Shown here: positions 21 through 16,802 of the stretch, in pieces
Numbering within the stretch: the first letter of the stretch is position 1
How the letters are laid out: each line of letters begins with the position of its first letter
Assembly: GCA_039588275.1 (NCBI GenBank)
Contig: JBDHAC010000051.1
Coordinates: forward strand, 1-25,743
Direction: 5' to 3'
DNA length: 25,743 nt
DNA from: Gemmatimonadota bacterium
Lineage (GTDB): Bacteria; Gemmatimonadota; Gemmatimonadetes; Palauibacterales; Palauibacteraceae
The notes under the pieces: model-generated
The model's input: the letters and a program-made list of their open reading frames with translations, nothing else
Told to the model about the DNA's origin: nothing
Database searches by the model: none
Program-made: the position numbers and the translations under genes

Positions 21-105
21 ACATAACAGGACCACTGGCGGCTCGGGCGGGAGCCCTCGCCCAACCCGGCTAACGCCGGGTTCGCCAGTGGCCGAGACGT
101 TAGCT
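21..105 (+). repeat. attC-like site 1
   Basis: ACATAAC-AGGAC-CACTGGCG...AACCCGGC-TAAC-GCCGGGTT-CGCCAGTG-GCCGAGAC-GTTAGCT. Confidence 0.85.
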
Positions 106-197
106 GAAATCGTCTCAGCCTCAGTGTAAGCAGAAAGCCCGACATGAATCGGTCGTCGGAGTTCGAGATCGGGTCTTAAGGCGGTTGAGTCAGGTTG

Positions 198-527
198 ATG
201 GCGACTGTCGAGACAGCATGGAAGAAGTCGGACGGTCCGGTCCGATACCACAAGAGCGAAACCGGGGTGGAACTCGGCGACCGTATCGAGGTCCGAGGCA
301 TCATCCGGAGGCGTCGCGGCATTGTGAACTCTGTCCCCGGAATCTCGGAGCCCCATCCGGAGATGGAATTCAACGCTCTCTACTGGGTCGGGATTTCGTT
401 CGACAACGGTACGTTCACAGGTGTTCTGGTTGATCCGGATACCGGCTGCGTATTGAAGAAGGTCGTGTTTCTCGGGCGTGGTTCTCCGGACCCAGAGCGG
501 CGTCTACCCGACGCACCCTTCGAGTAA
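198..527 (+). CDS. Hypothetical protein (cassette cargo)
   Basis: The one protein-like ORF filling the space between sites 1 and 2. ATG 198 preferred over TTG 195. No family recognised. Confidence 0.7.
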   Translation: MATVETAWKKSDGPVRYHKSETGVELGDRIEVRGIIRRRRGIVNSVPGISEPHPEMEFNALYWVGISFDNGTFTGVLVDPDTGCVLKKVVFLGRGSPDPERRLPDAPFE

Positions 528-570
528 GACGGCAGGCCGGCTTGCCGTGGTGCCGGGCGGCGACGACTTC

Positions 571-669
571 AGCTGACAGGACCACTGGCGGCTCGCCGCA
601 CGGAGGCGGCTCGCCCAACCCGCCACTCGCTGTGCTCAGGCGGGTTCGCCAGTGGCCGGGACGTTATGT
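571..669 (+). repeat. attC-like site 2
   Basis: AGCTGAC-AGGAC-CACTGGCG...AACCCGCC-(14-nt loop)-GGCGGGTT-CGCCAGTG-GCCGGGAC-GTTATGT. Confidence 0.85.
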
Positions 670-672
670 GAC

Positions 673-701
673 ATGACCCCGTTGGAACGCTGTGGTAGAT
701 T
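673..701 (+). promoter_or_regulatory. Putative sigma70 promoter inside the hicBA cassette
   Basis: ATGACC (673-678), 17 nt, TAGATT (696-701) with an extended TG at 693-694, followed by RBS GGAGGAGG and ATG 720. TA cassettes typically carry their own promoter. Confidence 0.5.
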
Positions 702-719
702 GGTGCGCAGGAGGAGGCC

Positions 720-944
720 ATGCGCCCGAATCGAGGCTTGAAATACCGGGTTCTGATCGAACCGGAGGAAGACGGCGGGTACGTCGCTGAGGTGCCGACG
801 TTGCCTGGTTGTCTCTCGCAGGGAGCCACCCGTCAGGAGGCACTCGAGAACGTAAAGGAAGCTATCGCCGTGTACCTAGAGAGTCTCGAGGCGCACGGGG
901 ATCCAGTGCCCCCTCCCATCAGCGAAGAGATCGTAGAGGTCTAG
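720..944 (+). CDS. hicB: HicB family antitoxin (short form, no C-terminal DNA-binding domain)
   Basis: YRVLIEPEEDGGYVAEVPTLPGCLSQGATRQEALENVKEAI matches the HicB partial RNase H fold. Strong RBS. Confidence 0.93.
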   Translation: MRPNRGLKYRVLIEPEEDGGYVAEVPTLPGCLSQGATRQEALENVKEAIAVYLESLEAHGDPVPPPISEEIVEV

Positions 945-945
945 C

Positions 946-1170
946 TTGACGCGGCTTCCGGCGCTGTCCGGTCGGGAGGTGGTGAAAGCGCTGAGCCAGA
1001 TCGGCTACGAATTAGACCGGCAGCGAAGGAGCCACATGATCCTTCGCCACCCGGAGCCTCCGTTTCGCCGCCTCGTTGTTCCCGACCACAAGGAAATCCG
1101 TCGCGGAACCCTTCGCGCGATCATTCGACAGGCCGGGCTCACAGTGACGGAGTTTCTTGATCTGCTGTAA
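946..1170 (+). CDS. hicA: HicA family mRNA interferase toxin
   Basis: LPALSGREVVKAL...RSHMILRH...VVPDHKEIRRGTLRAIIRQAGL, directly after hicB. TTG start. The GSH motif reads RSH here. Confidence 0.92.
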   Translation: MTRLPALSGREVVKALSQIGYELDRQRRSHMILRHPEPPFRRLVVPDHKEIRRGTLRAIIRQAGLTVTEFLDLL

Positions 1171-1186
1171 GGGGTGGGGTCACATC

Positions 1187-1276
1187 ACATAACAGGTCCA
1201 CTGGCGGCTCGGGGCGGACGCCCCTCGCCCAACCCTCTGGCTAACGCCGGGTTCGCCAGTGGCCGAGACGTTATGT
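1187..1276 (+). repeat. attC-like site 3
   Basis: ACATAAC-AGGTC-CACTGGCG...GGC-TAAC-GCCGGGTT-CGCCAGTG-GCCGAGAC-GTTATGT. Confidence 0.85.
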
Positions 1277-1304
1277 GCAATAGCACTTCTCTAGGGGGTT
1301 CAGA

Positions 1305-1439
1305 GTGGGGATCGAACTCGAGTGGTTCAGCCTGCTGATCGTACACTTCACGTGGTGCTGGAAGAACGGGATCGACCCGTGGCGAGCCACGCCCCGGCGG
1401 AAGTACTACGAGCTTCGAGGCTGGGCGTGGTTGGAGTAA
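1305..1439 (+). CDS. 44-aa Trp-rich small protein (possibly an internally deleted cassette gene)
   Basis: GTG 1305 after AGGGGG, TAA at 1437-1439: MGIELEWFSLLIVHFTWCWKNGIDPWRATPRRKYYELRGWAWLE. Fills the cassette between sites 3 and 4. Not in the ORF track. Confidence 0.6.
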   Translation: MGIELEWFSLLIVHFTWCWKNGIDPWRATPRRKYYELRGWAWLE

Positions 1440-1468
1440 AGCAGGAGTGTCAGCGGCCGTGCTACTGC

Positions 1469-1559
1469 ATATAACAGGTCCACTGGCCGCTCCGGCCCCC
1501 GACGAGGCCTCCGCGCAACCCGGCAGGCGCCGGTTTCGCCAGTAGCCGAGACGTCATCT
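1469..1559 (+). repeat. attC-like site 4 (R' is GTC)
   Basis: ATATAAC-AGGTC-CACTGGCC...AACCCGGC-AGGC-GCCGGTTT-CGCCAGTA-GCCGAGAC-GTCATCT. Confidence 0.8.
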
Positions 1560-1631
1560 GCAATCGTGTGAGCTCCGGCACGGGGATGGAAGAGCCGTGG
1601 CGCGAGCAACAGTCGCGAGAAAGGACTCGAT

Positions 1632-2024
1632 ATGCCGTTGAGGGAACGCAGTGCGGAGCTGGCCGTCGGTTGGATCGAGGCGTGGATCAAGATGGACATG
1701 GACTGGCTCCGGCAGCGGCTGGCGCCTGACTTCATCCACGTCAGTCCGTTCGGCAGGTTCGAAGACCGTGAGTCGTACCTGACGGCGGTCGAGCCGATGG
1801 CGCGAAAGAGCGTTGTGGGGCTTACGATCAAGGAGGTAATCGCCAGCGGAAACCAAGCAGCAATCCGCTTCGAGAACAGGACCCCCAAAGGAGCGATCGA
1901 ATCCTGCGACTGGGTCCGCGTTGAAAATGACCTGATCAAGGAGATCAGGTCGTTCTATGACAGTGCTATGATCCGTGAGGTCCTGTCGCCCGCCGAGCAA
2001 GAAGGCCTCAACGGTTCCGACTAG
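1632..2024 (+). CDS. SnoaL-like / NTF2 family protein (cassette cargo)
   Basis: WIEAW..D.D.L...LAPDFIHVSPFG...CDWVRVENDLIKEIRSFYD pattern. RBS AAGGA. Confidence 0.85.
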   Translation: MPLRERSAELAVGWIEAWIKMDMDWLRQRLAPDFIHVSPFGRFEDRESYLTAVEPMARKSVVGLTIKEVIASGNQAAIRFENRTPKGAIESCDWVRVENDLIKEIRSFYDSAMIREVLSPAEQEGLNGSD

Positions 2025-2066
2025 CGGCCAACGGTGCGCCGATCACCGGTCAGGACATGCGACTGC

Positions 2067-2153
2067 AGATAACAGGACCACTGGCGGCTCGGGGCGGGTG
2101 CCCCTTGCCCAACCCGGCTGACGCCGGGTTCGTCAGTGGCCGAGACGTTGTCT
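2067..2153 (+). repeat. attC-like site 5
   Basis: AGATAAC-AGGAC-CACTGGCG...AACCCGGC-TGAC-GCCGGGTT-CGTCAGTG-GCCGAGAC-GTTGTCT. Confidence 0.85.
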
Positions 2154-2437
2154 GAGATCGTCTCGGCATAACCGTAGGTTGTTAGCGTGATACGGATGGG
2201 CGCTTCGCAGCACAATCATTAATTAGAACGACGCAAGCACATAGACCATGAAGGCGTCCTGGATATCCGTGGGTACGGTGGTTCTTGCCTGGCCTTTGGC
2301 CGCGGCAGCCGCCTCTCTCAGAGCGACGGCGTCGCGGACGTAAAGCACTTTATGTCGTAGAGTACCTTCCCGCAAGCGTTTCCGTCAACAGCCGGCGTGG
2401 CCGGTCTTATCTCCCACGCTTTGCTTGAAGTAAGCTG

Positions 2438-2710
2438 TTGGCCTCGATTCTAGCGTTGATCGCGCTCTGTGCCCTGCGGTTCGGATCTAGATTGGCAATT
2501 CCGCTCGTGTGGGTTTTCAACGTCGAGGGAACGGCAGACCTTCTGAATGCCCTGCTCCAAGGCATTCGATACACGACGGATGCAGACCTGGGTGCGACCT
2601 ACTTCAACCCGGCGGTGATCGTGCCCGCGTTGCTCGTCACGCATCACGTGATCTTCATGGTGCTGCTTCGGCCGAAAGGTCCTCCGAGTCAGGCAGAGAG
2701 CCTCGGCTGA
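2438..2710 (+). pseudogene. C-terminal fragment of a membrane protein
   Basis: Three hydrophobic segments (AIPLVWVFNVEGTADLLNA, LGATYFNPAVIVPALLVTH). Starts abruptly inside a helix at a TTG with no RBS. Confidence 0.5.
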
Positions 2711-2770
2711 GCATGGGTCGTCAGCGCGCCGGTTCCGCTAGACGGTCGTGGGGCTAGCCGAAGGGGAGTA

Positions 2771-3529
2771 ATGGTCAGACTGCTACAATCGGTTCTGTTG
2801 GCCCTTGCGGGCGTCACATCCATGTCCGCTCACGCGCCCATCATCATCCGGCACGACGCGGAAGACGAGGTACACCGCGCCCTGGCCGAGCGCTTTCCTT
2901 CCCTCGTGCACCTCAACCTCCCCGATGGCGAAGCGGTCCTCATTCGACCTGGCTGGGTGCTCACCGCTGCCCACGTCGCGACCGAGGTAGCGCCGGGTCA
3001 CGCGCTCACGGTGGGAGGGAACGAGATCGAGGCAGCCGAAGTCGTGCTGCACCCGGAGTGGAGCGATGGCGGTGTGAACGACATTGCACTGGTTCGGCTG
3101 GATCGCCGGGTCCAGCACGTTCGACCCGTAGGAGTCTACGGCGAGCGTGACGAAGAAGGGCGGCTCATCTACGTGGTGGGCCGGGGTGACACCGGGACCG
3201 GGGTGAGTGGGCCTGAGCGCAACGACGGACAAGTGCGGGCGGCCACGAATCGGGTGGACGAGGCAACGGAGTTGTGGCTCAAGTTCCGGTTCGACGATCC
3301 GCGCGACGATCCTGAAGCAGCGACCGAGCTAGAAGGGATCAGCGGCCCGGGAGACAGCGGCGGCCCCGCGTACATCGAGCTAGATGGGATCCAGTACGTG
3401 GTGGGGGTGAGCTCAGGACAGAGTACGCGAGCGACGGGCGGCCGTGAGGGTGTCTACGGCGTCACGGAATACTACACCCGGGTCTCGAGCTATCTCGACT
3501 GGATCGCGCACGTCGTCGGCGAGGATTGA
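2771..3529 (+). CDS. Secreted trypsin-like serine protease (S1)
   Basis: Signal peptide; catalytic motifs WVLTAAH, DIALVRL, GDSGGP; C-terminal YTRVSSYLDWI. Confidence 0.95.
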   Translation: MVRLLQSVLLALAGVTSMSAHAPIIIRHDAEDEVHRALAERFPSLVHLNLPDGEAVLIRPGWVLTAAHVATEVAPGHALTVGGNEIEAAEVVLHPEWSDGGVNDIALVRLDRRVQHVRPVGVYGERDEEGRLIYVVGRGDTGTGVSGPERNDGQVRAATNRVDEATELWLKFRFDDPRDDPEAATELEGISGPGDSGGPAYIELDGIQYVVGVSSGQSTRATGGREGVYGVTEYYTRVSSYLDWIAHVVGED

Positions 3530-3613
3530 GCGCCGGAACTGACCCTGAAAGGTCCGCCCGCGGTTCACCGCCGCCGCCCGCCAGCCGCTACGCTCTCGAG
3601 CAGTGGCGTAGCG

Positions 3614-4108
3614 TCATCCACACAGGATTTGCCGCTCGTGCCATTGCGCGCGGAACCCGCCTTCGACCGTGGACCCGTCCTCGAACCGCAAGCGGAAGAG
3701 CCCGGGGAGCGAGCCGTCGGGTTCCCGCGTCTGGAACTCCACGAAGCCGGACGCGGGCGGATCGCACCGAGTCACTTCCACGGTGCAGCGCATCGCACCT
3801 GCAATCCGCTCCTGGTCGATCTCGAAACGCTCGCCTCCGAGCGCGTCGGCGGGCTGATACACGGAGATCCACACGTACGGACGCCGCACCTCCGAACCCG
3901 GCGGCTCCGCGGGCCGTAGGGTATCCGCCGATAGTGCGATCCAGGTGGCGCGGCCATCCCACGGCGCGCATCCATCCATCGCGTACGCGTACGGCAAGCC
4001 GTCGGGCGGCCCCGGCGGCGGGCTCGTCTCCGATGGGCGGCAGGCGCCGAGCAGCAGGCACGCGGGCGCCAAGACCAACATCGCCTGTTGGCTCACGGGT
4101 GTCGTCAC
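3614..4108 (-). CDS. Hypothetical lipoprotein
   Basis: RBS GGAGGAGG before GTG 4108; lipobox LLGAC; beta-rich mature part. Confidence 0.7.
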   Translation of the reverse strand: MTTPVSQQAMLVLAPACLLLGACRPSETSPPPGPPDGLPYAYAMDGCAPWDGRATWIALSADTLRPAEPPGSEVRRPYVWISVYQPADALGGERFEIDQERIAGAMRCTVEVTRCDPPASGFVEFQTREPDGSLPGLFRLRFEDGSTVEGGFRAQWHERQILCG

Positions 4109-4405
4109 GTTCCTCCTCCACGGCGGCATTCGAGTGAGGCTGTAAAGATGCCACGGGAAGGGCGACCGAAGGTAGTCCTGGGCGACCCTCGGCCAGTTCA
4201 TCTCGTCACTCGATCACGGCCAGGCGAGCAACGGGACACATCCCCCGATCCCTCGCCTCAGGACGTTTTCATCGCAAAATTGTGTCATATGCATCTCGCC
4301 TCTGAGACCCGGCTGGTCGACCGCGAGCGTGCATGACCGAACATTGCTGCGACCGGCCGTTCGCGAGCTCGGGGGCACCGACCGCGATTCGGAAGGAGTA
4401 CCGAT

Positions 4406-5764
4406 ATGAGATGGCTCTTCGTGGCCGCGGCCACGACCCTGGCGGGTGTCACCCTATCCCTGGCACCCGGCGGTCTGGCCGCGCAAGACGACGGAGGGAT
4501 CTTCCCCTTCGACTACGAGCTGGTCGAGCTCGACAACGGATTCAAGGCCTACCTGATTCCCGTGAACGAGCCCGGACGGCTCGCCTACGTGAGCATGGTC
4601 CGCACCGGCAGCCGCGACGAAGTCGAGGAAGGGAAGAGCGGCTTCGCCCACTTCTTCGAGCACATGATGTTCCGGGGCACGGAGAAGTACCCGTACTACG
4701 ACGGGATCACCGCCGAGATGGGTGTGGACCGGAACGCGTTCACGAGCAACGACCGCACCGTCTACTACCTCGTCGGCAACAGCGAGTACCTCGAGCAGAT
4801 CATGGATCTGGAGTCCGACCGATTCCAGAACCTGGCATACGACGAGCCGGCGTTCCGCACGGAGGCGGGCTCGGTGTTGGGTGAGTACTCGCAGGGCGCG
4901 CTGAGCCCGGGCCGCTGGCTGAACGAGAAGACTCGCGAGACCGCCTTCGACCGGCATACCTACCGGCACACGACGATCGGTTTCGAGGCCGACGTCAGGG
5001 CCATGCCCGAGGGCTACGAGTACAGCAAGTCGTTCTACGCGCGCTTCTATCGACCCGAGAACGTGATCCTGGTGATTGCGGGCGACTTCGACGTCGCCGA
5101 GGCGACGGGACTGATCGAGCAGTACTACGGCGGGTGGGAGACTGGCTACGTGCCGCCCGAGGTCGCGCCCGAGCCGGAGCAGACCGCACCGCGCAAGCGC
5201 ACCGTCTACTACCCGGGTCGTACGCTCCCCATCGTCGCCGTCAACTACAAATCGCCCGCATGGAGCGGGACGGACAAGCTCGCAGTGGCGACGGAGGTTC
5301 TGGGGCAGGTGGCGTTCGGCTCCAACTCCGACATCTATCGCAAGCTGGTAATCGACGAACAACGACTCCAGTCCCTTAACGCCGGCTTCGGACTGCAACG
5401 CGATCCGAGCCTCGTGGACGTTTCCGCGATGGTGAAGGACCCGGCGGACATCGATCCGATCAAGGCCGAGATCCAGGCGACGATCGAGCGCTTTCAGACC
5501 GAGCTGGTTGACGAGAAGCGTCTGGAGGACACGAAGAGCAACCTGAAGTACCGATACCTCATGGGACTCGAGACGGGTCAGCAGGTCGCCTTCTCGTTGA
5601 TGACGCCGATCATCAACGCCGGCACGCTCGAGGCGATCGAGGAATACTACGCGACGCTCGCCTCGCTCACGCCCGAGGACATTCGTGAAGCCGCGAACGC
5701 GGTGTTGAAGGAGAGCGGCCGCACCACGATCACCATGTTGCAGGCGGAGGGAGGTGCCCAATGA
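4406..5764 (+). CDS. M16B (insulinase/pitrilysin family) zinc peptidase, catalytic subunit
   Basis: Signal peptide; GSRDE..GKSGFAHFFEHMMFRGT (HxxEH); NAFTS; YRPEN. Confidence 0.95.
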   Translation: MRWLFVAAATTLAGVTLSLAPGGLAAQDDGGIFPFDYELVELDNGFKAYLIPVNEPGRLAYVSMVRTGSRDEVEEGKSGFAHFFEHMMFRGTEKYPYYDGITAEMGVDRNAFTSNDRTVYYLVGNSEYLEQIMDLESDRFQNLAYDEPAFRTEAGSVLGEYSQGALSPGRWLNEKTRETAFDRHTYRHTTIGFEADVRAMPEGYEYSKSFYARFYRPENVILVIAGDFDVAEATGLIEQYYGGWETGYVPPEVAPEPEQTAPRKRTVYYPGRTLPIVAVNYKSPAWSGTDKLAVATEVLGQVAFGSNSDIYRKLVIDEQRLQSLNAGFGLQRDPSLVDVSAMVKDPADIDPIKAEIQATIERFQTELVDEKRLEDTKSNLKYRYLMGLETGQQVAFSLMTPIINAGTLEAIEEYYATLASLTPEDIREAANAVLKESGRTTITMLQAEGGAQ

Positions 5765-7374
5765 GCGCCCTGGCCAGCATCCGTTCCCGGGGACGAGCGC
5801 TTCTCACCGGCCTGACGCTGCTCGGTGTGGCCTCGGCCGCCATCACGACGACCGCCTGCGCTCCGATCGAAACGAGCGGAGGTCCCGAAGGCACCATCAC
5901 CCTGCCCGAGCCCGGCTCGCCCTACATCGCATTCAACATCTGGGTGAAAGCCGGGTCGCAGAACGACCCGGCGGGTAAGGAGGGCCTCGCCGCGCTCACG
6001 GCGTCGCTCCTCTCCGACGGCTCCACGACCGAAGACAGCTACCAGGCGATTCTCGAGAAGCTGTACCCGATGGCGGCCGGGTACGGCGGGAGCGTGGACA
6101 AGGAGATGACCGTGTTCCGCGGTCGAGTCCACGTGGACAACCTCGAGGGCTACTACACGCTTTTCAAGAACTCCCTGCTGCAGCCCGCGTTCAGCGAGTC
6201 GGACTTCGAGCGGGTGAAGTCGCAGATGCTCAATTATCTCGAGCGCGGGCGCCGTTACAGCCGCGATGAAGAGCTCTCCAAGGAGCTGCTCTTCTGGTTG
6301 GCGTACGAAGGGACGCCGTACGAGCACCCCGAAGAGGGCTACGTCGAAACCGTAGAGTCGATCACCCTCGATGACGTGCGTGCCTTCTACGACCAGTACT
6401 ACGTCCGCAACAACATCGTCGTGAGCGTCGGGGGCGGGTACCCGGACGCGCTTGTCGAGCGGGTGCGTGCCGACTTCGACCTGCTGCCCGAGGGCGAGTC
6501 GGCAACCGTGAGCGCACCCACGCCGCTGATGCCCGAGGGCGTAAAGGTGCTGATCGTCGAGAAGGACACGAAGTCGACTCCGATCTCGTTCGGGTTCCCG
6601 ACGACCCTCACGCGGGGAGACGACGACTTCTTCGCGTTGATGACCGCGAACTCGTGGTTCGGAGAGCACCGCAACTCGTTCAGCCGCCTGTACCAGGTGA
6701 TCCGCGACGAGCGCGGCATGAACTACGGGGACTACTCCTACATCGAGGCGTTCCCGCGGGGGTATACCACGCAACAGCCGCCGGTCAACGCCGCACGCAG
6801 CAGCCACCTGTTCGAAGTGTGGATCCGTCCGATCTCGCTCACCGAGCCGGACAACCTCCACGAGCGCTCGCTGTTCGCCACGCGGGCGGCGATGCGCGAG
6901 CTGGAGCACCTGGTCGAGACGGGGATGACGGAGGAGACGTTCGAAGCGAGCCGCAAGTTCCTCCACAACTACACGCAGAAGTACGGCACCACGGTCAGCC
7001 GCCGACTGAGCTACAAGGTCGACGACGAGTTCTACGGTGTGGGCGGCGATGGCTTCCTGGCGTCGATCCGGCCCGGGCTGGCCGACCTGTCCCTGGAGGA
7101 GGTAAACGAAGCGATTCGTAATCACCTCCAGACCGAGAACATGTGGGTCGTGTTCATCACGGCTGACGCGGAGGGGATGAAGGAGTTGCTGCTGAGCGGC
7201 GAGCCGACGCCGATCACATACGCGGGCGCCAAGCCGGACGAGCTGCTGGCCGAGGACATGGAGATCGCGGCCTTCCCGATCCCGGTCGACGAGGACGACA
7301 TCACGATCCTCGGGATCGAGGAGGTATTCCAGAGCCCGCGGGCGACGCCGACGGAGGTCGTCACCGACGAGTAG
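5761..7374 (+). CDS. M16B peptidase, non-catalytic partner subunit
   Basis: GSQNDPAGKEGLAALTASLL (no HxxEH); SRLYQVIRDERGMNYG with the R/Y pair; ATGA overlap with the upstream gene. Confidence 0.92.
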   Translation: MSALASIRSRGRALLTGLTLLGVASAAITTTACAPIETSGGPEGTITLPEPGSPYIAFNIWVKAGSQNDPAGKEGLAALTASLLSDGSTTEDSYQAILEKLYPMAAGYGGSVDKEMTVFRGRVHVDNLEGYYTLFKNSLLQPAFSESDFERVKSQMLNYLERGRRYSRDEELSKELLFWLAYEGTPYEHPEEGYVETVESITLDDVRAFYDQYYVRNNIVVSVGGGYPDALVERVRADFDLLPEGESATVSAPTPLMPEGVKVLIVEKDTKSTPISFGFPTTLTRGDDDFFALMTANSWFGEHRNSFSRLYQVIRDERGMNYGDYSYIEAFPRGYTTQQPPVNAARSSHLFEVWIRPISLTEPDNLHERSLFATRAAMRELEHLVETGMTEETFEASRKFLHNYTQKYGTTVSRRLSYKVDDEFYGVGGDGFLASIRPGLADLSLEEVNEAIRNHLQTENMWVVFITADAEGMKELLLSGEPTPITYAGAKPDELLAEDMEIAAFPIPVDEDDITILGIEEVFQSPRATPTEVVTDE

Positions 7375-7387
7375 CCAGAAACGTTCT

Positions 7388-7431
7388 CTCACGGGGGCGC
7401 GGGGTGCGTGTACCGCCGCGCCCCCGGTGAG
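7388..7431 (+). terminator. GC-rich hairpin after the M16 operon
   Basis: CTCAC-GGGGGCGCGG...CCGCGCCCCC-G-GTGAG inverted repeat starting 14 nt after the stop. No clear U-tract. Confidence 0.45.
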
Positions 7432-7582
7432 TGGAATCGTACCCACCTGGACCATCGTGCCGTGTAAGATCCGGCGTTCTCACGGCATCCTTTACATAGG
7501 ACCCAGCCGCATGGGCCGCGGCGGGACGCGGCCCCACGCGCGGCGAACGTCCGCCCTCGACATCGAGCTCCGGTCAAAGGCG

Positions 7583-7627
7583 ACACTCCCGCAACTAGCC
7601 TTCGGGAGTGTACGAGTTATGTGCCAT
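7583..7627 (+). other. Candidate attI-like entry site of array 2
   Basis: Hairpin ACACTCCCG/CGGGAGTGT, then ACGA-GTTATGTGCCAT. The GTT arm is complementary to the left arm of site 6, but no full repeat precedes it. Confidence 0.5.
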
Positions 7628-7628
7628 T

Positions 7629-7904
7629 ATGAGGGAAGGAGGTGAGGTGCCTCACCGCCAGATACGTAGCTTTGAAGTCTCTGGCGCTCACTGGATTGCT
7701 CGGCGGCAGGAGCCAGCCGAGGGTAATGCCTCTTCTCGCCCCTCTTCTATTCATCATCCCGAGGCCGGCATTTGGTTTGAGAGTACCAGAGGAGAGCATC
7801 GATTCCTGAAGATGGACGAGGACGAACTTCCGGATGCGAGTGAGTTTCGAAGCCTGTCGGGACTTGAGCTGGGCCGGATGCTCAAGCGTGCTATCGAGAA
7901 ATAG
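7629..7904 (+). CDS. Small hypothetical protein (cassette cargo)
   Basis: The start should lie inside the cassette: ATG 7629, or GTG 7647 after AGGAGG. Stop lies 25 nt before site 6. Confidence 0.7.
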   Translation: MREGGEVPHRQIRSFEVSGAHWIARRQEPAEGNASSRPSSIHHPEAGIWFESTRGEHRFLKMDEDELPDASEFRSLSGLELGRMLKRAIEK

Positions 7905-7928
7905 GAGGCAGAGGGTCGTCTCAACGGC

Positions 7929-8018
7929 ACATAACAGGTCCACTGGCGGCTCCGGCCGCTTCGCGGCCTCCGAGCAACTCGGCTAACGCCGAGTTCGCCA
8001 GTGGCCGGGACGGTATAT
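7929..8018 (+). repeat. attC-like site 6 (R' is GGT)
   Basis: ACATAAC-AGGTC-CACTGGCG...GGCCGC-TTC-GCGGCC...AACTCGGC-TAAC-GCCGAGTT-CGCCAGTG-GCCGGGAC-GGTATAT. Confidence 0.85.
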
Positions 8019-8040
8019 GACATTCGCTTGGCGAGGATGC

Positions 8041-8496
8041 ATGAGTAAAGCAGCGCCCCTCACGGCCTTCGTTCTGTTGTTCTGTCATTCGGCGATAGCC
8101 CAGGAGCCGAATCCCATCGGCGGCGTGACCGTGCAGTCTGTCAGACTCTCCGAGGATGTCGCGCCGATTCTCACCGGCAGGATTGTGGACGCACGGGACG
8201 GCCACCCGGTACGTGGCCTTCAGGTGCTCCTGGAAGGAACCGAGATCGGAGGGCTGACCGACCCGAACGGTTGGTTCGAGCTGAAGGGGATGGTGCCCGG
8301 CACGTGGATTCTGGGCATGCGGCTGATCGGATATGTGACCGAGACCGTGGAATTGCGATTGGAGACCGGGACGGTGACGCAAGTCCTGGCCGGTATGCGG
8401 CTCGCCAGAATCCAGGGAGCTTTCCAGTTCATCCCACCGGCTACGCCTCCCCCACCTCGCACGGATACGGTGAGTGCGCACGGACCGGGTTGGTGA
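8041..8496 (+). CDS. Secreted carboxypeptidase-regulatory-like domain protein
   Basis: RBS GAGGA before ATG 8041; signal peptide ending AIA; TGRIVDA..G.P....V.LEGTEIGGLTD.NG.F.L....PG...L....IGY. Confidence 0.8.
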   Translation: MSKAAPLTAFVLLFCHSAIAQEPNPIGGVTVQSVRLSEDVAPILTGRIVDARDGHPVRGLQVLLEGTEIGGLTDPNGWFELKGMVPGTWILGMRLIGYVTETVELRLETGTVTQVLAGMRLARIQGAFQFIPPATPPPPRTDTVSAHGPGW

Positions 8497-8508
8497 GCAG
8501 CGAACGGC

Positions 8509-8600
8509 ACATAACGGGTCCCCTGGCGGCTCCGGCCCCTGACGGGGCCTGCGCGCAAACCCGGCGTTCGCCGGGTTCGCCAATAGCCGGGACGTTATCC
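8509..8600 (+). repeat. attC-like site 7
   Basis: ACATAAC-GGGTC-CCCTGGCG...GGCCCC-TGAC-GGGGCC...AACCCGGC-GTTC-GCCGGGTT-CGCCAATA-GCCGGGAC-GTTATCC. Confidence 0.8.
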
Positions 8601-8692
8601 GCAATGGGCTTTGTGCCCGGTAATGGATTCGGCCTGAAGGATGGAGAGGAAGCTGTCGAGCACGGCAGTATCAATGTGACGAGAGTGCCGGC

Positions 8693-9136
8693 ATGAAAAG
8701 GCTGTTGATTAGCTGTCTCGGGTGTCTCGTTCTCGCGTGCGGCTTCATCACGGGCGAGGAGGAGGAAGAAGAGATCACGCGCGAGCGGCTGATTGGCACT
8801 ATCGAGTTCTACAGTGACCCGGTTCGTATCCAGCTCCCCGGTACTGTCCTGAGAGGCGTCACGTTTGATGTGACGGTGCGCACATACGGAGGCGGTTGCA
8901 TAGACAAAGGCGACACGGAGGTGGAAGTGAACGGCCTCGCGGCCCAGGTGACACCCTACGACATCGAAGTCACGCATATGCCTGCCGGGTCCGTGTGCAC
9001 GGCAGATCTGCGGTTCTACGAGCACATCGGAGAGGTTCGTTTCGATCAGTCGGGTACCGCAACGGTGGTTGTCAGGGGTCGCAAGAAGCCGCAGGACGTC
9101 ATCATCTCCGTGGAGCGAGCAGTGAACGTCCGATGA
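8693..9136 (+). CDS. Hypothetical lipoprotein (beta-sandwich-like, paired Cys)
   Basis: MKRLLISCLGCLVLAC lipobox; GGGC...VCTAD motif. Confidence 0.8.
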   Translation: MKRLLISCLGCLVLACGFITGEEEEEEITRERLIGTIEFYSDPVRIQLPGTVLRGVTFDVTVRTYGGGCIDKGDTEVEVNGLAAQVTPYDIEVTHMPAGSVCTADLRFYEHIGEVRFDQSGTATVVVRGRKKPQDVIISVERAVNVR

Positions 9137-9168
9137 GGAGTGTGTCACGGTAGGAATCGGCCCACTGC

Positions 9169-9260
9169 GTACAACAGGTCCACTGGCGGCTCTGGGCTTA
9201 GGCCCCTCGCCCGACCCCGGGCTAACGCCTGCAAGTTCGCCGGTGGCCGGGACATCAGAC
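9169..9260 (+). repeat. attC-like site 8 (degenerate; R' is ATC)
   Basis: GTACAAC-AGGTC-CACTGGCG...GGC-TAAC-GCC...TT-CGCCGGTG-GCCGGGAC-ATCAGAC. Confidence 0.75.
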
Positions 9261-9293
9261 GCCATTCCGGCGCGTCCGGGGTGAGCATATGTG

Positions 9294-10154
9294 ATGGCTA
9301 ACGAGATGGAACGCCATCGGAAGAGACCTCACCGCCGCTTCACGGCAACCGTGATGGTGGCTTCACTGCTGACGGTCCTGTTCGGCTGCGACGGGTCGAC
9401 GGGTCCAGCCACGCAGCTCGCCGGCACGTTCGGTCTGCTCGAGTACGAAGGGAGCATCGTCCCCGTCGACGAGGGTCCGCTGCCGCCGCGGTCTGGCGGC
9501 GTTTCGAACTGCCATATGATCGTGGCCGACGGGGCGCTGTCTCTGGATCCCGAAAGGCGACGATTCGCGCTCCACTATTCAGTGCGACGATCGTGTGACA
9601 GCGGAATCCTGAGCCAGCCGGGGGAGACAGGCGACTATCGGCCATCCAGCCGGACTCTACGCTTCGAGTCGACGATCGGAGAATTCGACGGGCGACTACG
9701 AGAGGATGGGTCGATCGCGGTCGAGTTCTTCGACCGCACGCTCGTGTTTGGCGGAGCGGCGCACCTTTCGCCGAGGGCGGAGGGTCAATATGAGCTCGTC
9801 GATCTCGCGCAGCTCCCGATCGAGCACGCCGGCGTCGGGAGTCCTCCAGCGGAATCGAGCTGCCCTTTGTTGGTCGATCATGGGATCTTGAGCCTGCGGC
9901 CGCTCTCAGGCCGAGCGATGACGGGTCGGTTCGACATAGACTATGCCCTCCGTTCTTCCTGCACCGACGAGATACGAACGAAAGCCGACGAGTCGGGCAG
10001 CTACGAGCAGGTGGCGGGCTCGCTCACCTTCGCGGGTGAGATCAGCCCGAACGTCGTGCACCCGTTTCGGGGGCACGTGGGTGAGCGGGCGATCGTGCTC
10101 TTCATTGGGCACGATCTGATGTTTCGCTCGGCGGTCGCTGCCCCTGGGCAATGA
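9294..10154 (+). CDS. Hypothetical lipoprotein with two tandem homologous beta domains
   Basis: Lipobox LFGC; internal duplication with two Cys per copy. Confidence 0.8.
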   Translation: MANEMERHRKRPHRRFTATVMVASLLTVLFGCDGSTGPATQLAGTFGLLEYEGSIVPVDEGPLPPRSGGVSNCHMIVADGALSLDPERRRFALHYSVRRSCDSGILSQPGETGDYRPSSRTLRFESTIGEFDGRLREDGSIAVEFFDRTLVFGGAAHLSPRAEGQYELVDLAQLPIEHAGVGSPPAESSCPLLVDHGILSLRPLSGRAMTGRFDIDYALRSSCTDEIRTKADESGSYEQVAGSLTFAGEISPNVVHPFRGHVGERAIVLFIGHDLMFRSAVAAPGQ

Positions 10155-10174
10155 AGGGCCGCGGCCCGAGCGGC

Positions 10175-10223
10175 GTCTAGCAGGTCCACCGGCGGCTCGG
10201 GGCCGGTGCCGGGGACGCGGCGA
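10175..10223 (+). repeat. attC-like site 9 (degraded/shortened)
   Basis: GTCTAGC-AGGTC-CACCGGCGGCTCGGG-GCCGGTG-CCGGGGAC-GCGGCGA. Left half clear, right boundary uncertain. Confidence 0.6.
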
Positions 10224-10255
10224 TCCTGGCCGCGCCCTCGGGTAGCCCCGGCTTC

Positions 10256-11203
10256 TCATAACGCGATTGGGCGGGTCTCGGACTGGCCCCCGACCGACGC
10301 TCCGGCGGACCGGGTGACCTCCCGATAGATCTGCTCCAGGCCCACGGGGCGTACGGAGAGCGACCGGACCGCCAGATCCGCGAAGTCGTTGGCGACCCGT
10401 TCCAGGCTCTCCCGCTCGGGAAGCCACACCGTAACCGCGTCGCCAACGCTCCGGTGCTCGAAGCCGAGCGTGTCTGCCCGTTCCTTGACGGCGCCCGGGT
10501 CGTCTGCGTGGACGATGGCGAGCTCCGCCGCGGGAATCAGCGCCCGTAGCTGGGTCATCGAGCCCTCGGCCGCGATCTGGCCGCCGGCCATGATTCCGAT
10601 GCGAGCGCACAGCGCCTCCGCCTCCTCCAGGTAGTGCGTGGTCAGGAGGACCGTGGTTCCCGCCCTCCGGAGAGATTGGATCAACTCCCACAGTTGGTGC
10701 CGGGCCTCCACGTCCAGCCCCACCGTGGGCTCATCCAGGATGAGCAGAAGCGGCTCGTGCACCAGGCCCACTGCCACGTTGAGCCTCCGGTGCATGCCCC
10801 CACTGAGCGTGGCCACGAGATCGTCCGCACGGTCCTCCAGGCCCACGGCCTCGAGGCAGCGCGCGGCTCGCTCCCGCCGCCCGTCCTTCGCCACGCAATA
10901 CACGCTGGCGAAGAAAAGCAGGTTCTCGACGCAGGTCAGATGCCGGTAGAGGGAGATCTCCTGGGGCACCACACCGATCGTTGACGGAGCGCGGGAGGCC
11001 AGCGTCCGGCCGTCCAGCCGCACTGCTCCGCCGTCGGCCGTGACCAGACCGCAGATGATGTTGATGCAGGTCGTCTTCCCCGCTCCGTTCGAACCCAACA
11101 AGCCGTAGATCTCTCCGCTCGCCACCGCGAAGTCCAAACCGGTAAGGACGCGGGCGTCCCCGAACGACTTCTCCAGATCTCGTACCTCGAGCAGCGCGCT
11201 CAT
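10256..11203 (-). CDS. ABC-2 type transporter ATP-binding protein
   Basis: Walker A GSNGAGKTT, signature LSGGM, Walker B LILDEPT, TTH. Start MSALLEV overlaps the permease stop (TGATG). Confidence 0.95.
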   Translation of the reverse strand: MSALLEVRDLEKSFGDARVLTGLDFAVASGEIYGLLGSNGAGKTTCINIICGLVTADGGAVRLDGRTLASRAPSTIGVVPQEISLYRHLTCVENLLFFASVYCVAKDGRRERAARCLEAVGLEDRADDLVATLSGGMHRRLNVAVGLVHEPLLLILDEPTVGLDVEARHQLWELIQSLRRAGTTVLLTTHYLEEAEALCARIGIMAGGQIAAEGSMTQLRALIPAAELAIVHADDPGAVKERADTLGFEHRSVGDAVTVWLPERESLERVANDFADLAVRSLSVRPVGLEQIYREVTRSAGASVGGQSETRPIAL

Positions 11204-11952
11204 CACGACCCAGACTGCCGATCGAGCATACGGCGGTATGATCTCGTGCCCACCACGATGCCCACCAGCGCGAAGACGACAAGAAACCCCAGGTGATCGG
11301 TTACCGAGCTCCACCCGGCGCCCGTCGCGGACACGGCCTTCAGCGCCTCGTTCATATGGAACACCGGGTTGAGTTGGGTGGCCGCGAACAGGTACGAGGG
11401 CAGCATGTCCGGCGGAAAGAACGTGCCTCCGAGCACCAGGAGTGGCACACCGATGGCCGCCACCGGCCCGTTCACCTCCTCGGTGCTCTTGGCGAAGCGG
11501 GCCCCGAAGTAGAAGCCCACTCCCACGTACGCGGTCACGCTGAGGAGGAGGATGAGCACGCCCAGAAACAGCGAGCCGTGAAAGCGTCCCCCGAAGGCGT
11601 ACGCGATTCCGTAGACGATCGCTGTCTGACCCGCCGCGATGACGAGGAAAGCGACGACGATGCCCAGGAAGTACGCCGCCGGGGACAGGGGCGACAGGAG
11701 GATCCGTTTGAGCGTCTGGCGCTCGCGCTCCCCCACGAGGACCGTGATCGGCCCGGAGAGGCAGCTGAAGAAGAGCGCGGCTCCGATCAGGATACCGGGT
11801 GCCGTGTAGTCGAATGATCGGCTCGTCCCCTGTCCGTCCGCGTAGATCAATCCGAACAGGAGCAGCATGAGGGTCGGGAAGAGCACCCAGAACACGAGGC
11901 TCCGCCGCGTGTGCCAGAGCTCGGTCAGGATCCGCCTCGCGACCGCAACCAT
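11203..11952 (-). CDS. ABC-2 type transporter permease
   Basis: About six TM helices; ERE.QTLKRILLSP; GTFFPPDMLP..L.AATQLNP. Confidence 0.93.
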   Translation of the reverse strand: MVAVARRILTELWHTRRSLVFWVLFPTLMLLLFGLIYADGQGTSRSFDYTAPGILIGAALFFSCLSGPITVLVGERERQTLKRILLSPLSPAAYFLGIVVAFLVIAAGQTAIVYGIAYAFGGRFHGSLFLGVLILLLSVTAYVGVGFYFGARFAKSTEEVNGPVAAIGVPLLVLGGTFFPPDMLPSYLFAATQLNPVFHMNEALKAVSATGAGWSSVTDHLGFLVVFALVGIVVGTRSYRRMLDRQSGS

Positions 11953-11960
11953 GATGCCCC

Positions 11961-12590
11961 CTAACCGCGCCCCTCGCCGTGATGCAGCGGCTCTCCCACC
12001 ACTGACTTCCGCATGCGATCCGCGCGCTCCCGGCGGGCGCGGATAGCGGCCAGGGTCTCGTCGCACCACTCGACGCGCGCCCGCAGCGTACCCAAGCCCG
12101 AGCGCAGCGTGGTGTATTGGTGGAACACGCGGTCGTCGTCGATGGTCTCGAGCGGGTCGCCCTCGACACCGAGATGGTCCAGCCACACCCGCTCGGTCTG
12201 CTCGAGCCTCGCGAGCACCTCCGCCGTCGATTGGTGCAGGGTCTCCATGAAGCGCTCAGTGGCCTCCAGATCCTCCAACGCGCTCATGAAGAAGAGCTGA
12301 GCCAGGTACGTGATGCGAGGTCTCGGGGTTACCGGATCGGACCGAAGCCAGCTCTCGAGCTCGTCACTCCCGGCTTCGGTGGTCCCGTACACGCGCCGTT
12401 CCGGACCGCGGGACGACGGAACGCGTCGGCTGCGAAGCAGGCCCCGCTCCTCGAGTTTCCTGAGCGCCGGGTAGATCTGGCTCAGCTCGGCGAACCAGAA
12501 GTGCCGCGCCGTGCGCTCGAACTCCTGCTTCAGATCGTAGCCCGATGCCGGGTTGCGGAGGATACCGAGGAGGATGTGATCGAGGCTCAA
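11961..12590 (-). CDS. PadR family transcriptional regulator
   Basis: HILLGIL..PASGYDLK..F....HFW....SQIYPALRKLE..G...Y..TEAG; RBS GAGGAG 7 nt before TTG 12590. Confidence 0.92.
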   Translation of the reverse strand: MSLDHILLGILRNPASGYDLKQEFERTARHFWFAELSQIYPALRKLEERGLLRSRRVPSSRGPERRVYGTTEAGSDELESWLRSDPVTPRPRITYLAQLFFMSALEDLEATERFMETLHQSTAEVLARLEQTERVWLDHLGVEGDPLETIDDDRVFHQYTTLRSGLGTLRARVEWCDETLAAIRARRERADRMRKSVVGEPLHHGEGRG

Positions 12591-12622
12591 AGGTGGTCTC
12601 CTCACAGTCTCATGCGGAGCAG

Positions 12623-12642
12623 CTATATAAATACTATAATAG
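12623..12642. promoter_or_regulatory. AT-rich promoter/operator box upstream of padR
   Basis: CTATATAAATACTATAATAG: imperfect palindrome containing TATAAT, in a GC-rich context between divergent genes. Confidence 0.5.
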
Positions 12643-12830
12643 TGGAGCCGTGTGTCCCGAAAGCCTGGGGGAGGACTGCCCCGGTAAGTAGTCCACTAGA
12701 TTCCAGCGCGCCGCACATCGCGGGGACGGAATGAGAGACAACACTCCCGGTAGATGGTATTTTCCTCGCGTCACGAGGTGACCGACTCCGAGCCTGATCG
12801 GCTCACTCACACATAGACACTGGAGGACCG

Positions 12831-13349
12831 ATGCGGTTCATATTGGCGGTCGCGCTGCTGACGCTCGCGTTGCCGGCGCACGCACGCGCACAGGAGGAGG
12901 AGCACGCGCACGAAGGCGATACCTCCGCGATGAGCGAGATCCCCTCCCTGACAGAACAGCAGATCCAGGAGCTGAAGACGGGCGGCGGGATGGGGTTCGC
13001 AAGGCTGGCGGAGGTCAACCATTACCCCGGCCCCAAACACGTCCTCGAGCTGGCGGAAGAGCTCGAGCTCACCGATGAGCAGAGGGAGACGGTCGGTGGG
13101 ATCCGGGCCAAGATGCTGGAGAAGGCGATTCCTCTCGGCGAGAAGATCATCGAGGCGGAAGGCCACCTGAACATGCGATTCCAGCACGGCCACATCGATG
13201 AGGCGGCGCTCCGCGAGGCGACGGACCAAATCGCCGCGCTGTATGGAGAGCTGCGGTACACGCACCTGTCAGCGCATCTCGCGGCGCAGGCGCTACTCAC
13301 GCAGGAGCAGATCGCGACCTACGACCAGTTGCGGGGTTACACGCCCTAG
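12831..13349 (+). CDS. Periplasmic Spy/CpxP-like helical protein
   Basis: Signal peptide; LTEQQ, LELTDEQ and LLTQEQ (LTxxQ) motifs; RBS GGAGG. Confidence 0.8.
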   Translation: MRFILAVALLTLALPAHARAQEEEHAHEGDTSAMSEIPSLTEQQIQELKTGGGMGFARLAEVNHYPGPKHVLELAEELELTDEQRETVGGIRAKMLEKAIPLGEKIIEAEGHLNMRFQHGHIDEAALREATDQIAALYGELRYTHLSAHLAAQALLTQEQIATYDQLRGYTP

Positions 13350-13484
13350 GTCATCCCACACGTGCGGGCTCGTCGAGTGCGCTCGTCGGGCCCCGTTTTC
13401 CTGCCGAAGCGGGCTGTCAGGCCGGACGAGGGCTCGTATAGATTGGCGCGGCCGAGGAATCCTCGCTCACGCACGGTCGAGCCG

Positions 13485-13928
13485 ATGCCACACGAATTCT
13501 CAGTGACCCGAAAGGTCGAGTTCGCCGACACCGACACGGCGGGCGTCGTCCACTTCGCGGCCTTCTTCCGCTACATGGAGGAGGCCGAGCACGAGTTCTA
13601 CCGCTCGCTGGGGGAGTCGGCCTACCGTTGGGAGCCGGACGGAGTGATCGGGATGCCCAGGGTCTCGGCCCGCTGTGACTTTCTTCGCCCGCTCCGTTAC
13701 CCCGCGGAGGTGGAGATCCACCTCACCGTCCGCGAGAAGTCGTCCAAGGCGATCGGCTACGACGTCGTCTTCCGGGTAGCGGACGGGGACGCAGCCGTGG
13801 AGATCGCGCGTGGAGCGATGAAGGTCGTGTACGCATCGCGAGTGCACGGGTCGCAGGATTGGGAGGCTGTGGACCTGCCACCCGTCCTTCAGGAGCACAT
13901 CGAGGTGGCGCCGGAGGTGATCGCATGA
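13485..13928 (+). CDS. Acyl-CoA thioesterase (4HBT/YbgC hotdog fold)
   Basis: KVEFADTDTAGVVHFAAFFRYMEEAE; CDFLRPLRY. Confidence 0.9.
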   Translation: MPHEFSVTRKVEFADTDTAGVVHFAAFFRYMEEAEHEFYRSLGESAYRWEPDGVIGMPRVSARCDFLRPLRYPAEVEIHLTVREKSSKAIGYDVVFRVADGDAAVEIARGAMKVVYASRVHGSQDWEAVDLPPVLQEHIEVAPEVIA

Positions 13929-14566
13929 GGTGGATCGGGAGCTCGACGTTCGCGCTTGCCGGAGCCCTGCTCCTGGCAGGCACGGCCTCGGCGCAAGGTG
14001 CGCGAGGGTTTGAAGTCGGAGCCGGTGTGGCGATGACCACGAATCCCGTCGAGGCGCTGTCTGACGAGACCTGTCCGGCCGGGACGACCTGGGCGAGCGA
14101 GGGTCGGCTGGCCTGGCGCTTCTCGCGTGCGGTCGCGCTCGAAGGTAGCACGGCCCTGCACTGGGAGTCTGCGGACGACTGCACGGATGTGGGACCACCG
14201 CTGCCTCTGGGCCCGTTCGAGCGAACCGTGCGCGACTACCCGGACGGCTACCCGTTCACCACGAGCGACGTGCGGCTCGCGTTCGAGCCCTCGAGTCCCA
14301 GCGGGACGACTTGGTTCCGCGCGTTCGGAGGCTGGGGCTACATGTGGGGGAAGGAGATTGGCTACTGGCTTGCCGGCGGTGGAGTGGTGTTCGGCCGTCG
14401 AATCAGGTTCGTGCTCGACGCCGAGTGGAGGTGGTTCGACGTGCCGTTCGACTCGGTCACGCAGAACTTCCTCGATGCCGTTCTGATTTCGGAGGAGGTT
14501 GTAGACACCGGAGAGGAGTCGCACAACACGTTCACGGTCAAACTCGGATTCCGGCTGCGAATATAG
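13925..14566 (+). CDS. Putative outer-membrane beta-barrel protein
   Basis: Signal peptide ending ASA; amphipathic strands; C-terminal TVKLGFRLRI; ATGA overlap. Confidence 0.7.
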   Translation: MRWIGSSTFALAGALLLAGTASAQGARGFEVGAGVAMTTNPVEALSDETCPAGTTWASEGRLAWRFSRAVALEGSTALHWESADDCTDVGPPLPLGPFERTVRDYPDGYPFTTSDVRLAFEPSSPSGTTWFRAFGGWGYMWGKEIGYWLAGGGVVFGRRIRFVLDAEWRWFDVPFDSVTQNFLDAVLISEEVVDTGEESHNTFTVKLGFRLRI

Positions 14567-14670
14567 GCTTCGATCGACTGCTGTGGCCGAGGTCGTATAC
14601 CGGCAATATATCGTGTGTAAGCCAGTTACGAAGATTACTTAAAGTAATGTATAAAGATCGCCCATGCCCG

Positions 14671-14708
14671 TGATGGGCGCCTCTGAGGGCGCCTCTGATG
14701 GGCGCCTC
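14671..14708. repeat. Short tandem repeat, 3 x TGA(T)GGGCGCCTC
   Basis: tgatgggcgcctc-tgagggcgcctc-tgatgggcgcctc. Confidence 0.85.
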
Positions 14709-14897
14709 GGGAGACCGACCGCCGCAAGAGCCAGAGAAGCGGGGACTCGGGTGTCACATTTCGCCCGTTCATGACATCTAACGGGTATAGCCGAAGAGCC
14801 GGTTTCCAGAGCGCTTGAGTTCTCGAGCGCCCGATCTGATAGAGTGATGACGCGCATCCGCGGTCGTCTCGACAACCCTGCCGTCAACACGCTACCG

Positions 14898-15311
14898 ATG
14901 GCGGTGGCGTGGCGAACTCTGTACGTACTCGCCGTGAGCCTCGCACTTGCCTGCGAGTCCACCTTTGCGCCGCCGATCCCTCCCGAGGCCGAGTGGACGG
15001 AGGGGACCTGGCAATACGTCCTAAGGGCGTGCCCGTTCGGGTTCGTTTCCGAGCCCGACGGCATCGAGCTGCTGACGCTCGAGCCGAGCGGGGACGCACT
15101 CTGGACGGTGGGCGGAAATCTCGTCTCCGTGGAGCGGTTCGAGATCCGGAGGCAGGAGGTCTACTTCGGCAACCTGCTCGTGATCGTGTTCGAGCACCGG
15201 TTCGCGGGAAATCCGATGGCCATCAGCCAAGTCCCGCCGGACACCATGAAGCTCGTGAATCCCAATGTCACGGACCCCTGCGGCTTCTATTACACACGTC
15301 CGGTCGGCTAG
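14898..15311 (+). CDS. Hypothetical lipoprotein
   Basis: Lipobox ALAC; EGTWQY lipocalin-like start of the mature domain. Start uncertain (14844-14898). Confidence 0.7.
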   Translation: MAVAWRTLYVLAVSLALACESTFAPPIPPEAEWTEGTWQYVLRACPFGFVSEPDGIELLTLEPSGDALWTVGGNLVSVERFEIRRQEVYFGNLLVIVFEHRFAGNPMAISQVPPDTMKLVNPNVTDPCGFYYTRPVG

Positions 15312-15368
15312 AGAACCATGCACGGGTGGATGAGCGCCGGTCTTGAAGGGACGCGAACCGGGACAGCC

Positions 15369-16034: not shown

Positions 16035-16252
16035 TGCATCCGTCAACCGGCCTCCGGGGGCTTACCCCGATCCTCGCACTGATCGCCATTGCCTGGGACG
16101 GCCTTTTCGGGGGCAAGGTATGCACGCTCATCGGCGACGGGATCCTGGAATCAAGGGACGTGCGGCCCAGATACTACAAGCGGAAGCCGAACGGAGACGG
16201 CTGCGACCCCACCTGCCGAGTCGCCACGATCACCATCCTCCTGGAGTCGTGA
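16034..16252 (+). pseudogene. Probable degraded lipoprotein gene
   Basis: TGATG coupling to the upstream gene; signal-like N-terminus with IAIAW where a lipobox Cys is expected; VCTLIG and PNGDGCDPTC motifs very close together. Confidence 0.4.
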
Positions 16253-16395
16253 CGTCGCGGTTTGCCGCAAGGTGCACCGGATCGCCTCCCACAGTGTCCC
16301 AAGCCCACGGCTTCGATCGTTCTCCTTGTGCACACGATCCAATCGTCGGTGGGTGATCGACGGTCTGGTCGTGGACGGAGGATGGGGAATCGAGG

Positions 16396-16746: not shown

Positions 16747-16802
16747 GGCGGAAGATGAGTAGGCCGACGACCGGTTCTCCAGGACGAATCGCGAAGATGT
16801 CG

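Follow-up and report, generated by a model that had tools for sequence, protein, structure and literature searches.

Why should the two ends of a gene cassette be complementary to each other, and which recombinase would make use of such a pair? The question is raised by positions 1 to 25,743 of contig JBDHAC010000051.1 (C51) of a Gemmatimonadota bacterium (assembly GCA_039588275.1, here G000, 85.8% complete). Within this stretch, hereafter the window, short cassettes are separated by a palindromic repeat of 75–89 nt, with eight full copies and one left half, all at 25–10200 and none elsewhere in G000. The original prediction, made from the letters of the window, took the complementarity of each cassette's own ends as a footprint of excision and shuffling. 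Our analysis suggests that the window holds an integron-like array of a class whose recombinase lacks the I2 region. The paired ends are probably the outer arm of a folded single-stranded site in an integron-like system, with an I2-less recombinase carrying a HARP/UvsW-like domain as the predicted enzyme.

All eight end pairs quoted in the original prediction lie where it had placed them and its scores (14/16, 16/18, 15/17, 14/18, 12/13, 13/17 and 13/17) are correct, as is the weaker pairing of the last cassette, a run of 7 nt. The ends pair with their own partner and not with the neighbour, since flanks across the same repeat match at only 6–11 of 17 positions. In an all-versus-all matrix of the flanks (8 × 8, 17 nt), every row peaks at the own partner (8/8), which is also the unique maximum of its column in 7/8 cases, with one tie. 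Own pairs sum to 108/136 over 17 nt, other pairings average 8.66/17, and a single one of the 40,320 permutations reaches 108/136, so that shuffled pairings do not match the own-cassette total. Position 11 is never paired. In all eight cassettes the 5′ end has A here and the 3′ end has C, which on the bottom strand makes a T·G wobble. Beyond this mismatch follow 5–6 further pairs; positions 12–17 by themselves are paired in 40/48 cases against a background of 2.1/6 (again 1/40,320 permutations), and positions 18–25 are at background (16/64). The own-end stem can be described as 10 bp, a fixed A/C mismatch and 5–6 bp, about 16–17 nt in all. Each cassette begins at G/TT and closes with AAC followed by the palindromic repeat. 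The starts at 91–120 and 2138–2167 can in addition pair with the final 9 nt of the repeat before them and could form a competing local hairpin over G/TT; the same start follows the HicBA cassette in a congeneric genome, G001.

The same outline recurs outside the window. Pattern scans with the repeat returned 9 genome loci and 14 metagenome loci, 23 in total (one duplicate); the genomes are titled Gemmatimonadota, Longimicrobiales or Latescibacterota, and no viral contig contained the repeat. Cassettes bounded by repeat halves gave 42 intervals, of which five (>1.7 kb) and one that was off by a base were dropped. The 36 that were kept include the window's eight and exclude the duplicates L054 and L072. 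Position 11 is A/G (A opposite C) in 34/36, and positions 13–17 are paired in 134/180 cases, where permutation gives 61. Taken without those of the window, 29 cassettes reach 378/493 against 264. Twenty stretches around close homologues of the recombinase described below yielded eight with arrays of different repeats. Here, 54 cassettes were scored (44 distinct) with a finder that fixed positions 1–4 and 8 and left 11–17 free. In the 44, position 11 is A/G in 42 and positions 13–17 are paired in 151/220 cases against a null of 67. Both cassette ends have fixed letters at positions 8 and 11, and the variable positions 5–7 and 12–16 co-vary from cassette to cassette.

One array (L102 in G021, 5337–16372) contains at least 12 near-identical, ORF-poor 200-bp cassettes scattered along its length. 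Among 12 such paralogues, stem position 6 is A:T in four, G:C in seven and A/C in one, a compensatory exchange with an intermediate that points to continuing selection. This series bears on the idea that the complementarity is a birth scar, left by fold-back copying or by capture into a ready-made hairpin frame, or else an RNA stem, and in either case dispensable for later recombination. Such an origin would fit the same end frames in unrelated cassettes and the own matched pair in each of some eighty cassettes. However, simple copying is not expected to leave a fixed mismatch at position 11, the transcribed strand has A/C there and the wobble exists on the bottom strand only, and the exchange in the paralogues suggests selection after birth. 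We regard the scar as improbable.

To what extent is the long stem peculiar to these cassettes? As control we used the canonical integron on the Gemmatirosa kalamazoonensis plasmid NZ_CP007129.1 (29 distinct cassettes) and six class 1 cassettes, leaving out four class 1 intervals as mis-bounded. Published accounts give the R box 7 bp and leave the variable part unpaired in arrays (PMC5371416). Whereas the original prediction made the circle stem about twice this 7-bp core, the comparison is really one of about 17 with 11, as pairing in the canonical integron from this phylum ends after 11 bp. Canonical cassettes do not in practice keep to 7 bp either, with stems of 10–11 bp in Gemmatirosa and 8–13 bp in class 1. 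In the Gemmatirosa cassettes, positions 4–11 are paired in 217/232 cases and positions 13–17 in 36/145 against a null of 41. Own-end complementarity beyond 7 bp is ordinary; what differs is the second helix past the fixed mismatch, missing in the 29 canonical cassettes and present in the 44 beside I2-less recombinases. The Gemmatirosa locus (L121, 21622–40406) also has a co-oriented intI, and its 11-bp end pairing is followed, in 17/29 cassettes, by an A opposite C one base further out than in the window.

The repeats differ from attC sites in their geometry as well. The canonical arrangement (5-nt spacer, L box with an extrahelical base, 5–6 nt spacer) has no match in the window on either strand. 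Over 58 repeats, the canonical L-box score is at most 5/7 in every one (0/58 pass), whereas scoring in the same way picks up 34 Gemmatirosa sites at 7/7. A flush 8-bp inner stem scores 7–8/8 in 56/58 repeats, and the spacer offset is +3 in 58/58 against 0 in 34/34 canonical sites. The inner length between the arms is 70–144 nt (median 75).

These measurements weigh on a more conventional explanation, in which the window is an ordinary cluster of attC sites lacking integron-integrases (CALIN) served by a canonical IntI in trans, the long stem being a lineage habit of its attC sites. The G/TT crossover and the 3′ repeat are indeed as in integrons, canonical IntI is above cut-off in 14/61 relatives and in 2/5 repeat-bearing genomes, and canonical cassettes too exceed 7 bp. 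Yet no window site and none of the 58 repeats has canonical geometry, the window repeat did not turn up beside canonical IntI in 18 loci, and the second helix separates the 29 canonical cassettes from the 44. Moreover, IntI was not found in G000 or in the congeners G001 and G002 (assemblies 84–91% complete), and no attC was found beside the canonical IntI of the two repeat-bearing genomes that have one. A search for further canonical controls beside the relatives' IntI gave one site in 18 loci, none that was convincing in five further stretches, and none beside the IntI of G447 or G451. Taken together, we consider a CALIN unlikely.

A candidate enzyme of another kind lies next to some of the arrays. 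Two of the 23 repeat loci have a recombinase match, in both cases upstream, co-oriented and of the I2-less type. G001 and G002 each encode a full-length I2-less tyrosine recombinase co-oriented with the array; the copy at L057 has an apparent frameshift at its start. The protein has SAM_4 and integrase domains, scores 179–212 bits with TIGR02249 against a cut-off of 265, and lacks about 35–40 residues of the I2 region. Close homologues occur in 19/401 genomes of the phylum, and none was found in plasmids at E 1e-60. A Foldseek search placed VchIntIA (PDB 2a3v) as the closest solved structure to the whole protein. The enzyme also comes out close to the models for archaeal XerA and for XerC/D, XerA being the top NCBIfam model, below its cut-off, and also the top VIA match. 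A 174-aa recombinase beside the G002 array was rejected as the array enzyme, as it is inverted and of another type. A shorter SAM_4 recombinase that lacks the N-terminal domain is present in four identical copies at L112–L114 (G278), some of them near cassette-like ends; this may be an insertion-sequence-like relative.

The N-terminal domain is predicted to be HARP/UvsW-like by three partly independent routes. Pfam HARP is found in 59/111 recombinase homologues with an E limit of 1, the best value being 6e-5, the domain matches SMARCAL1 (PDB 4o66) at E 0.0016, and in the structure model (mean pLDDT 91) residues 7–77 superpose on T4 UvsW with Z 7.1 and rmsd 1.8. Atlas structure matches are consistent with a HARP-like N-terminal domain. 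The HARP fold is linked to the binding of forks or mismatches.

Which strand such an enzyme would act on can be approached by folding. At the predicted circle junction, the fold of the bottom strand is more stable than that of the top strand in 33/34 cases, and more stable than the fold at the array junction in 31/34. Position 11 itself supplies part of this strand bias. The weak bias outside position 11 is what one would expect if the enzyme acted on double strands in the manner of Xer, the ends being two binding arms of 11–12 bp with differing preferences at position 11, the wobble a by-product and no fold read. The arms, fixed in their letters at positions 8 and 11, would presumably be similar to those of Xer dif sites, which are 11 bp long, and the enzyme scores close to XerA and XerC/D. 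Double-strand recognition does not explain why positions 5–7 and 12–16 co-vary per cassette, and the arms lie 70–144 nt apart around a conserved palindrome, not 6–8 bp. A purely Xer-like action seems to us slightly less probable than a CALIN.

If the units are mobile, cassettes should recur with the same boundaries elsewhere. The window provides the following units:

25–99, forward strand: att-like repeat 1 (AAC ... G/TT), whose cassette is truncated by the contig start.
99–663, forward strand: cassette A1, 110-aa ORF at 195–527 (no Pfam), ends 99–115 and 561–577, repeat 575–663.
663–1270, forward strand: cassette A2, HicB at 720–944 and HicA at 946–1170, ends 663–680 and 1176–1193, repeat 1191–1270.
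1270–1553, forward strand: cassette A3, 206 bp to AAC, no forward ORF of 60 aa, ends 1270–1286 and 1459–1475, repeat 1473–1553.
1553–2147, forward strand: cassette A4, SnoaL-like gene at 1632–2024, ends 1553–1570 and 2056–2073, repeat 2071–2147.
2147–2167, forward strand: cassette-type 5′ end, unpartnered and repeat-less, the decayed last unit of array A.
3614–7374, no strand assigned: chromosomal block between the arrays, a reverse-strand ORF and two M16 peptidases, found in G001 without surrounding att repeats.
7460–7618, forward strand: orphan attI-like module ending CGA/GTT at 7616, homologous to DNA just 3′ of the recombinase stop in G001 and G002.
7616–8012, forward strand: cassette B1, ends 7616–7632 and 7919–7935, repeat 7933–8012.
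8012–8594, forward strand: cassette B2, CarboxypepD_reg-like gene, ends 8012–8028 and 8499–8515 (start GGT), repeat 8513–8594.
8594–9254, forward strand: cassette B3, 147-aa ORF at 8693–9136, ends 8594–8610 and 9159–9175, repeat 9173–9254.
9254–10200, forward strand: cassette B4, decayed, 287-aa ORF at 9291–10154, start ATC, end AGC, the repeat being the left half (10179); an intact homologue is in G002.

The cassettes form two arrays, A running off the contig start and B at 7616–10200, because the start at 2147 has neither partner nor repeat and the block at 3614–7374 lacks flanking att repeats in G001. We rejected 2148–7616 as one giant cassette: the start at 2147 finds at best 11/17 within 2300–7600, and the repeat is absent. 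The gene behind the unpaired start (2188–2710) looks broken, with a stop and a frame change, and is followed by a trypsin-like gene (2771–3529), again repeat-less. Array GC is 0.60–0.64, the cargo comprises HicBA, SnoaL-like and CarboxypepD-like genes and unknowns, and an Rfam search with the window gave no match at E up to 1. Further on, 13859–18716 is taken up by a run of short genes in one orientation, with functions that are mixed or unknown (DUF4377, DUF3221, PEMT-like, Rce1-like) and without att repeats; they are partly common to G001 and G002 and are possibly old cassettes whose sites were lost. Elsewhere in G000, a single right-half-like repeat copy followed by GTT lies on C21 near 56953; a fragment of a phage-type integrase is about 4 kb away.

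Two of the eight cassettes do recur with other neighbours. The HicBA cassette is present in G001 at 95% identity from an identical GTT through the repeat, with different DNA on both sides. As the identity begins at GTT and includes the repeat, the crossover is at G/TT and the repeat belongs to the cassette's 3′ end. The last cassette (B4) is found in G002 with intact ends, a full repeat and a different downstream cassette. The original description of the units as integron-type cassettes with a G/TT crossover and a 3′ repeat is borne out by these copies, and its expectation that homologues elsewhere share the G/TT boundaries holds for the HicBA cassette. The broader claim, that the same cassettes occur among other neighbours, stands for these two and not for A1 and A4, whose gene homologues lack the boundaries. 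Movement of the units as circles, as in the original prediction, is inferred.

Where, then, is the enzyme of this array? G000 contains neither the I2-less recombinase nor IntI; its recombinases are XerC, XerD and phage-type only, XerC and XerD being separate host genes. In both G001 and G002 the recombinase is followed by a site ending CGA/GTT and a co-oriented cassette. The window start at 7616 is likewise preceded by an attI-like site instead of a repeat: the stretch 7460–7618 resembles the post-recombinase stretch of the congeners at both its ends, and 7616 scores 16/18 on a pattern built from the congeners only, a value that it shares with two others as the highest of 10,597 sites, with no recombinase adjacent. 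The missing gene is probably in an assembly gap, as suggested by contig C94 of G000, which stops about 2.4 kb before the syntenic position of the recombinase, and by the absence of ispH as well. A promoter scan of 7300–7700 gave no match. The 160–220 bp stretch from recombinase stop to attI recurs, whole or in part, at recombinase-less loci (the window at 7460–7618; G000:C43:750–968; G001:C16 near 4700, L018; G002:C149 after an M16 gene, L148). These orphan modules may themselves move; the one on C43 is not followed by a complete cassette.

We propose that cassettes would be excised as circles, whose bottom strand would fold into a long hairpin with the T·G wobble in its outer arm, and that this outer arm would be recombined with attI. 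Selection at each re-insertion, acting on the circle form, could then keep both ends co-varying. In the most speculative step, the wobble and the second helix may serve as a strand or orientation cue that replaces the extrahelical base and the I2 helix and is read by the HARP-like domain. That this domain reads the wobble is a tentative idea, with the odds against it. In VchIntIA the I2 helix touches the extrahelical base (PMC3053210), and a joint loss of the two would be coherent because of this contact. We advance with similar hesitation the wider possibility of a second, widespread integron class, in which I2 helix and extrahelical base were lost together, a fork-binding HARP/UvsW-like domain reads the T·G wobble and the second helix formed by the cassette's own ends, and only the excised circle is a complete, oriented site.

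Several observations count against the proposal of a folded site read by the I2-less enzyme. G000 itself has yielded no such enzyme, and the missing syntenic stretch with ispH fits a gap without proving one. Canonical IntI elsewhere in two of the five repeat-bearing genomes could act in trans. The main canonical control is one integron, in which position 12 is A/G in 17/29, and the mismatch may thus stem from independent sequence preferences of the two ends, not from a wobble that is read. The inner repeat alone prefers the bottom strand in only 23/34 cases, and other mismatches are nearly strand-neutral (14 bottom-wobble, 10 top-wobble). In G002, position 11 of the intact last cassette is paired, and the genes of A1 and A4 have homologues in G448 and G002 that lack cassette boundaries. 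For the domain, HARP Pfam scores stay under the curated threshold, and a Z of 7.1 is moderate. Low-depth contigs of two runs contained no circle-junction or cassette-skipping joint, which at this depth says nothing either way.

Should the proposal hold, searches keyed on IntI and canonical attC would miss many gene-capture arrays, and the 10 + 1 + 5 end signature would allow cassettes to be placed in the class when, as in this window, the assembly lacks a recombinase. Mutation would have small and precisely defined targets in the invariant position 11 and the second helix, and the need for own matched ends of 16–17 nt in every cassette constrains models of cassette origin. The present work adds a canonical control from the same phylum, in which the second helix is seen to separate both kinds of cassette, and the assignment of an enzyme-less array via its congeners.

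We found no published description of this site or enzyme class in a search that left most subscription journals and bioRxiv supplements outside; the closest layout is that of rAID-1 in Bacteroidales. Both systems have co-oriented short genes with repeated intergenic motifs behind a tyrosine recombinase that is XerD-like and sits 5′ of them, and the rAID-1 motifs were called "reminiscent of integrons" (10.1101/471110; PMC12247911). At least two co-oriented downstream genes with conserved intergenic motifs, one of the marks of a rAID-1, are present here. The likeness is one of published layout, and rAID-1 is defined by a 5′ XerD-like recombinase >44% identical to a B. fragilis query. However, rAID-1 loci were described for Bacteroidales, carry largely immunity genes and have a GC of at most 41%, whereas the window array has 0.60–0.64 and HicBA and other cargo. 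The main text of the preprint does not mention attC, palindrome, hairpin or inverted repeat and so offers no anatomy of the site (10.1101/471110).

With XerC/XerD and archaeal XerA, which act on dif sites and pdif modules, the recombinase shares a simple tyrosine-recombinase core. Xer dif and pdif sites consist of two binding arms around a 6–8 bp spacer. The window arms differ in that they are cassette-specific and split by a palindrome of 70–144 nt.

The window can also be compared with canonical integrons. Both have promoter-poor single-gene cassettes in one orientation, a G/TT crossover, a palindromic 3′ site, own-end complementarity, HicBA cargo and an attI-like first site. Foldseek ranks VchIntIA first, and the integrase is co-oriented in Gemmatirosa too. 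The differences lie in the site and in the enzyme. Whereas the canonical outer stem pairs 11 bp and then nothing, that of the window has 10 bp, a mismatch and 5–6 bp more; its sites lack the extrahelical base of the L box where canonical sites have it, and their offset is +3 instead of 0. The window-type recombinase lacks some 35–40 I2 residues, reaches 212 against 265 bits with TIGR02249 and carries an extra HARP/UvsW-like domain. The array works like an integron yet departs from one in two defining respects, I2 and attC geometry. According to published work, integron integrases recognise folded sites through the I2 region and the extrahelical bases (PMC3053210, PMC5371416); if our reading is true, cassette shuffling with neither of them would represent a second solution.

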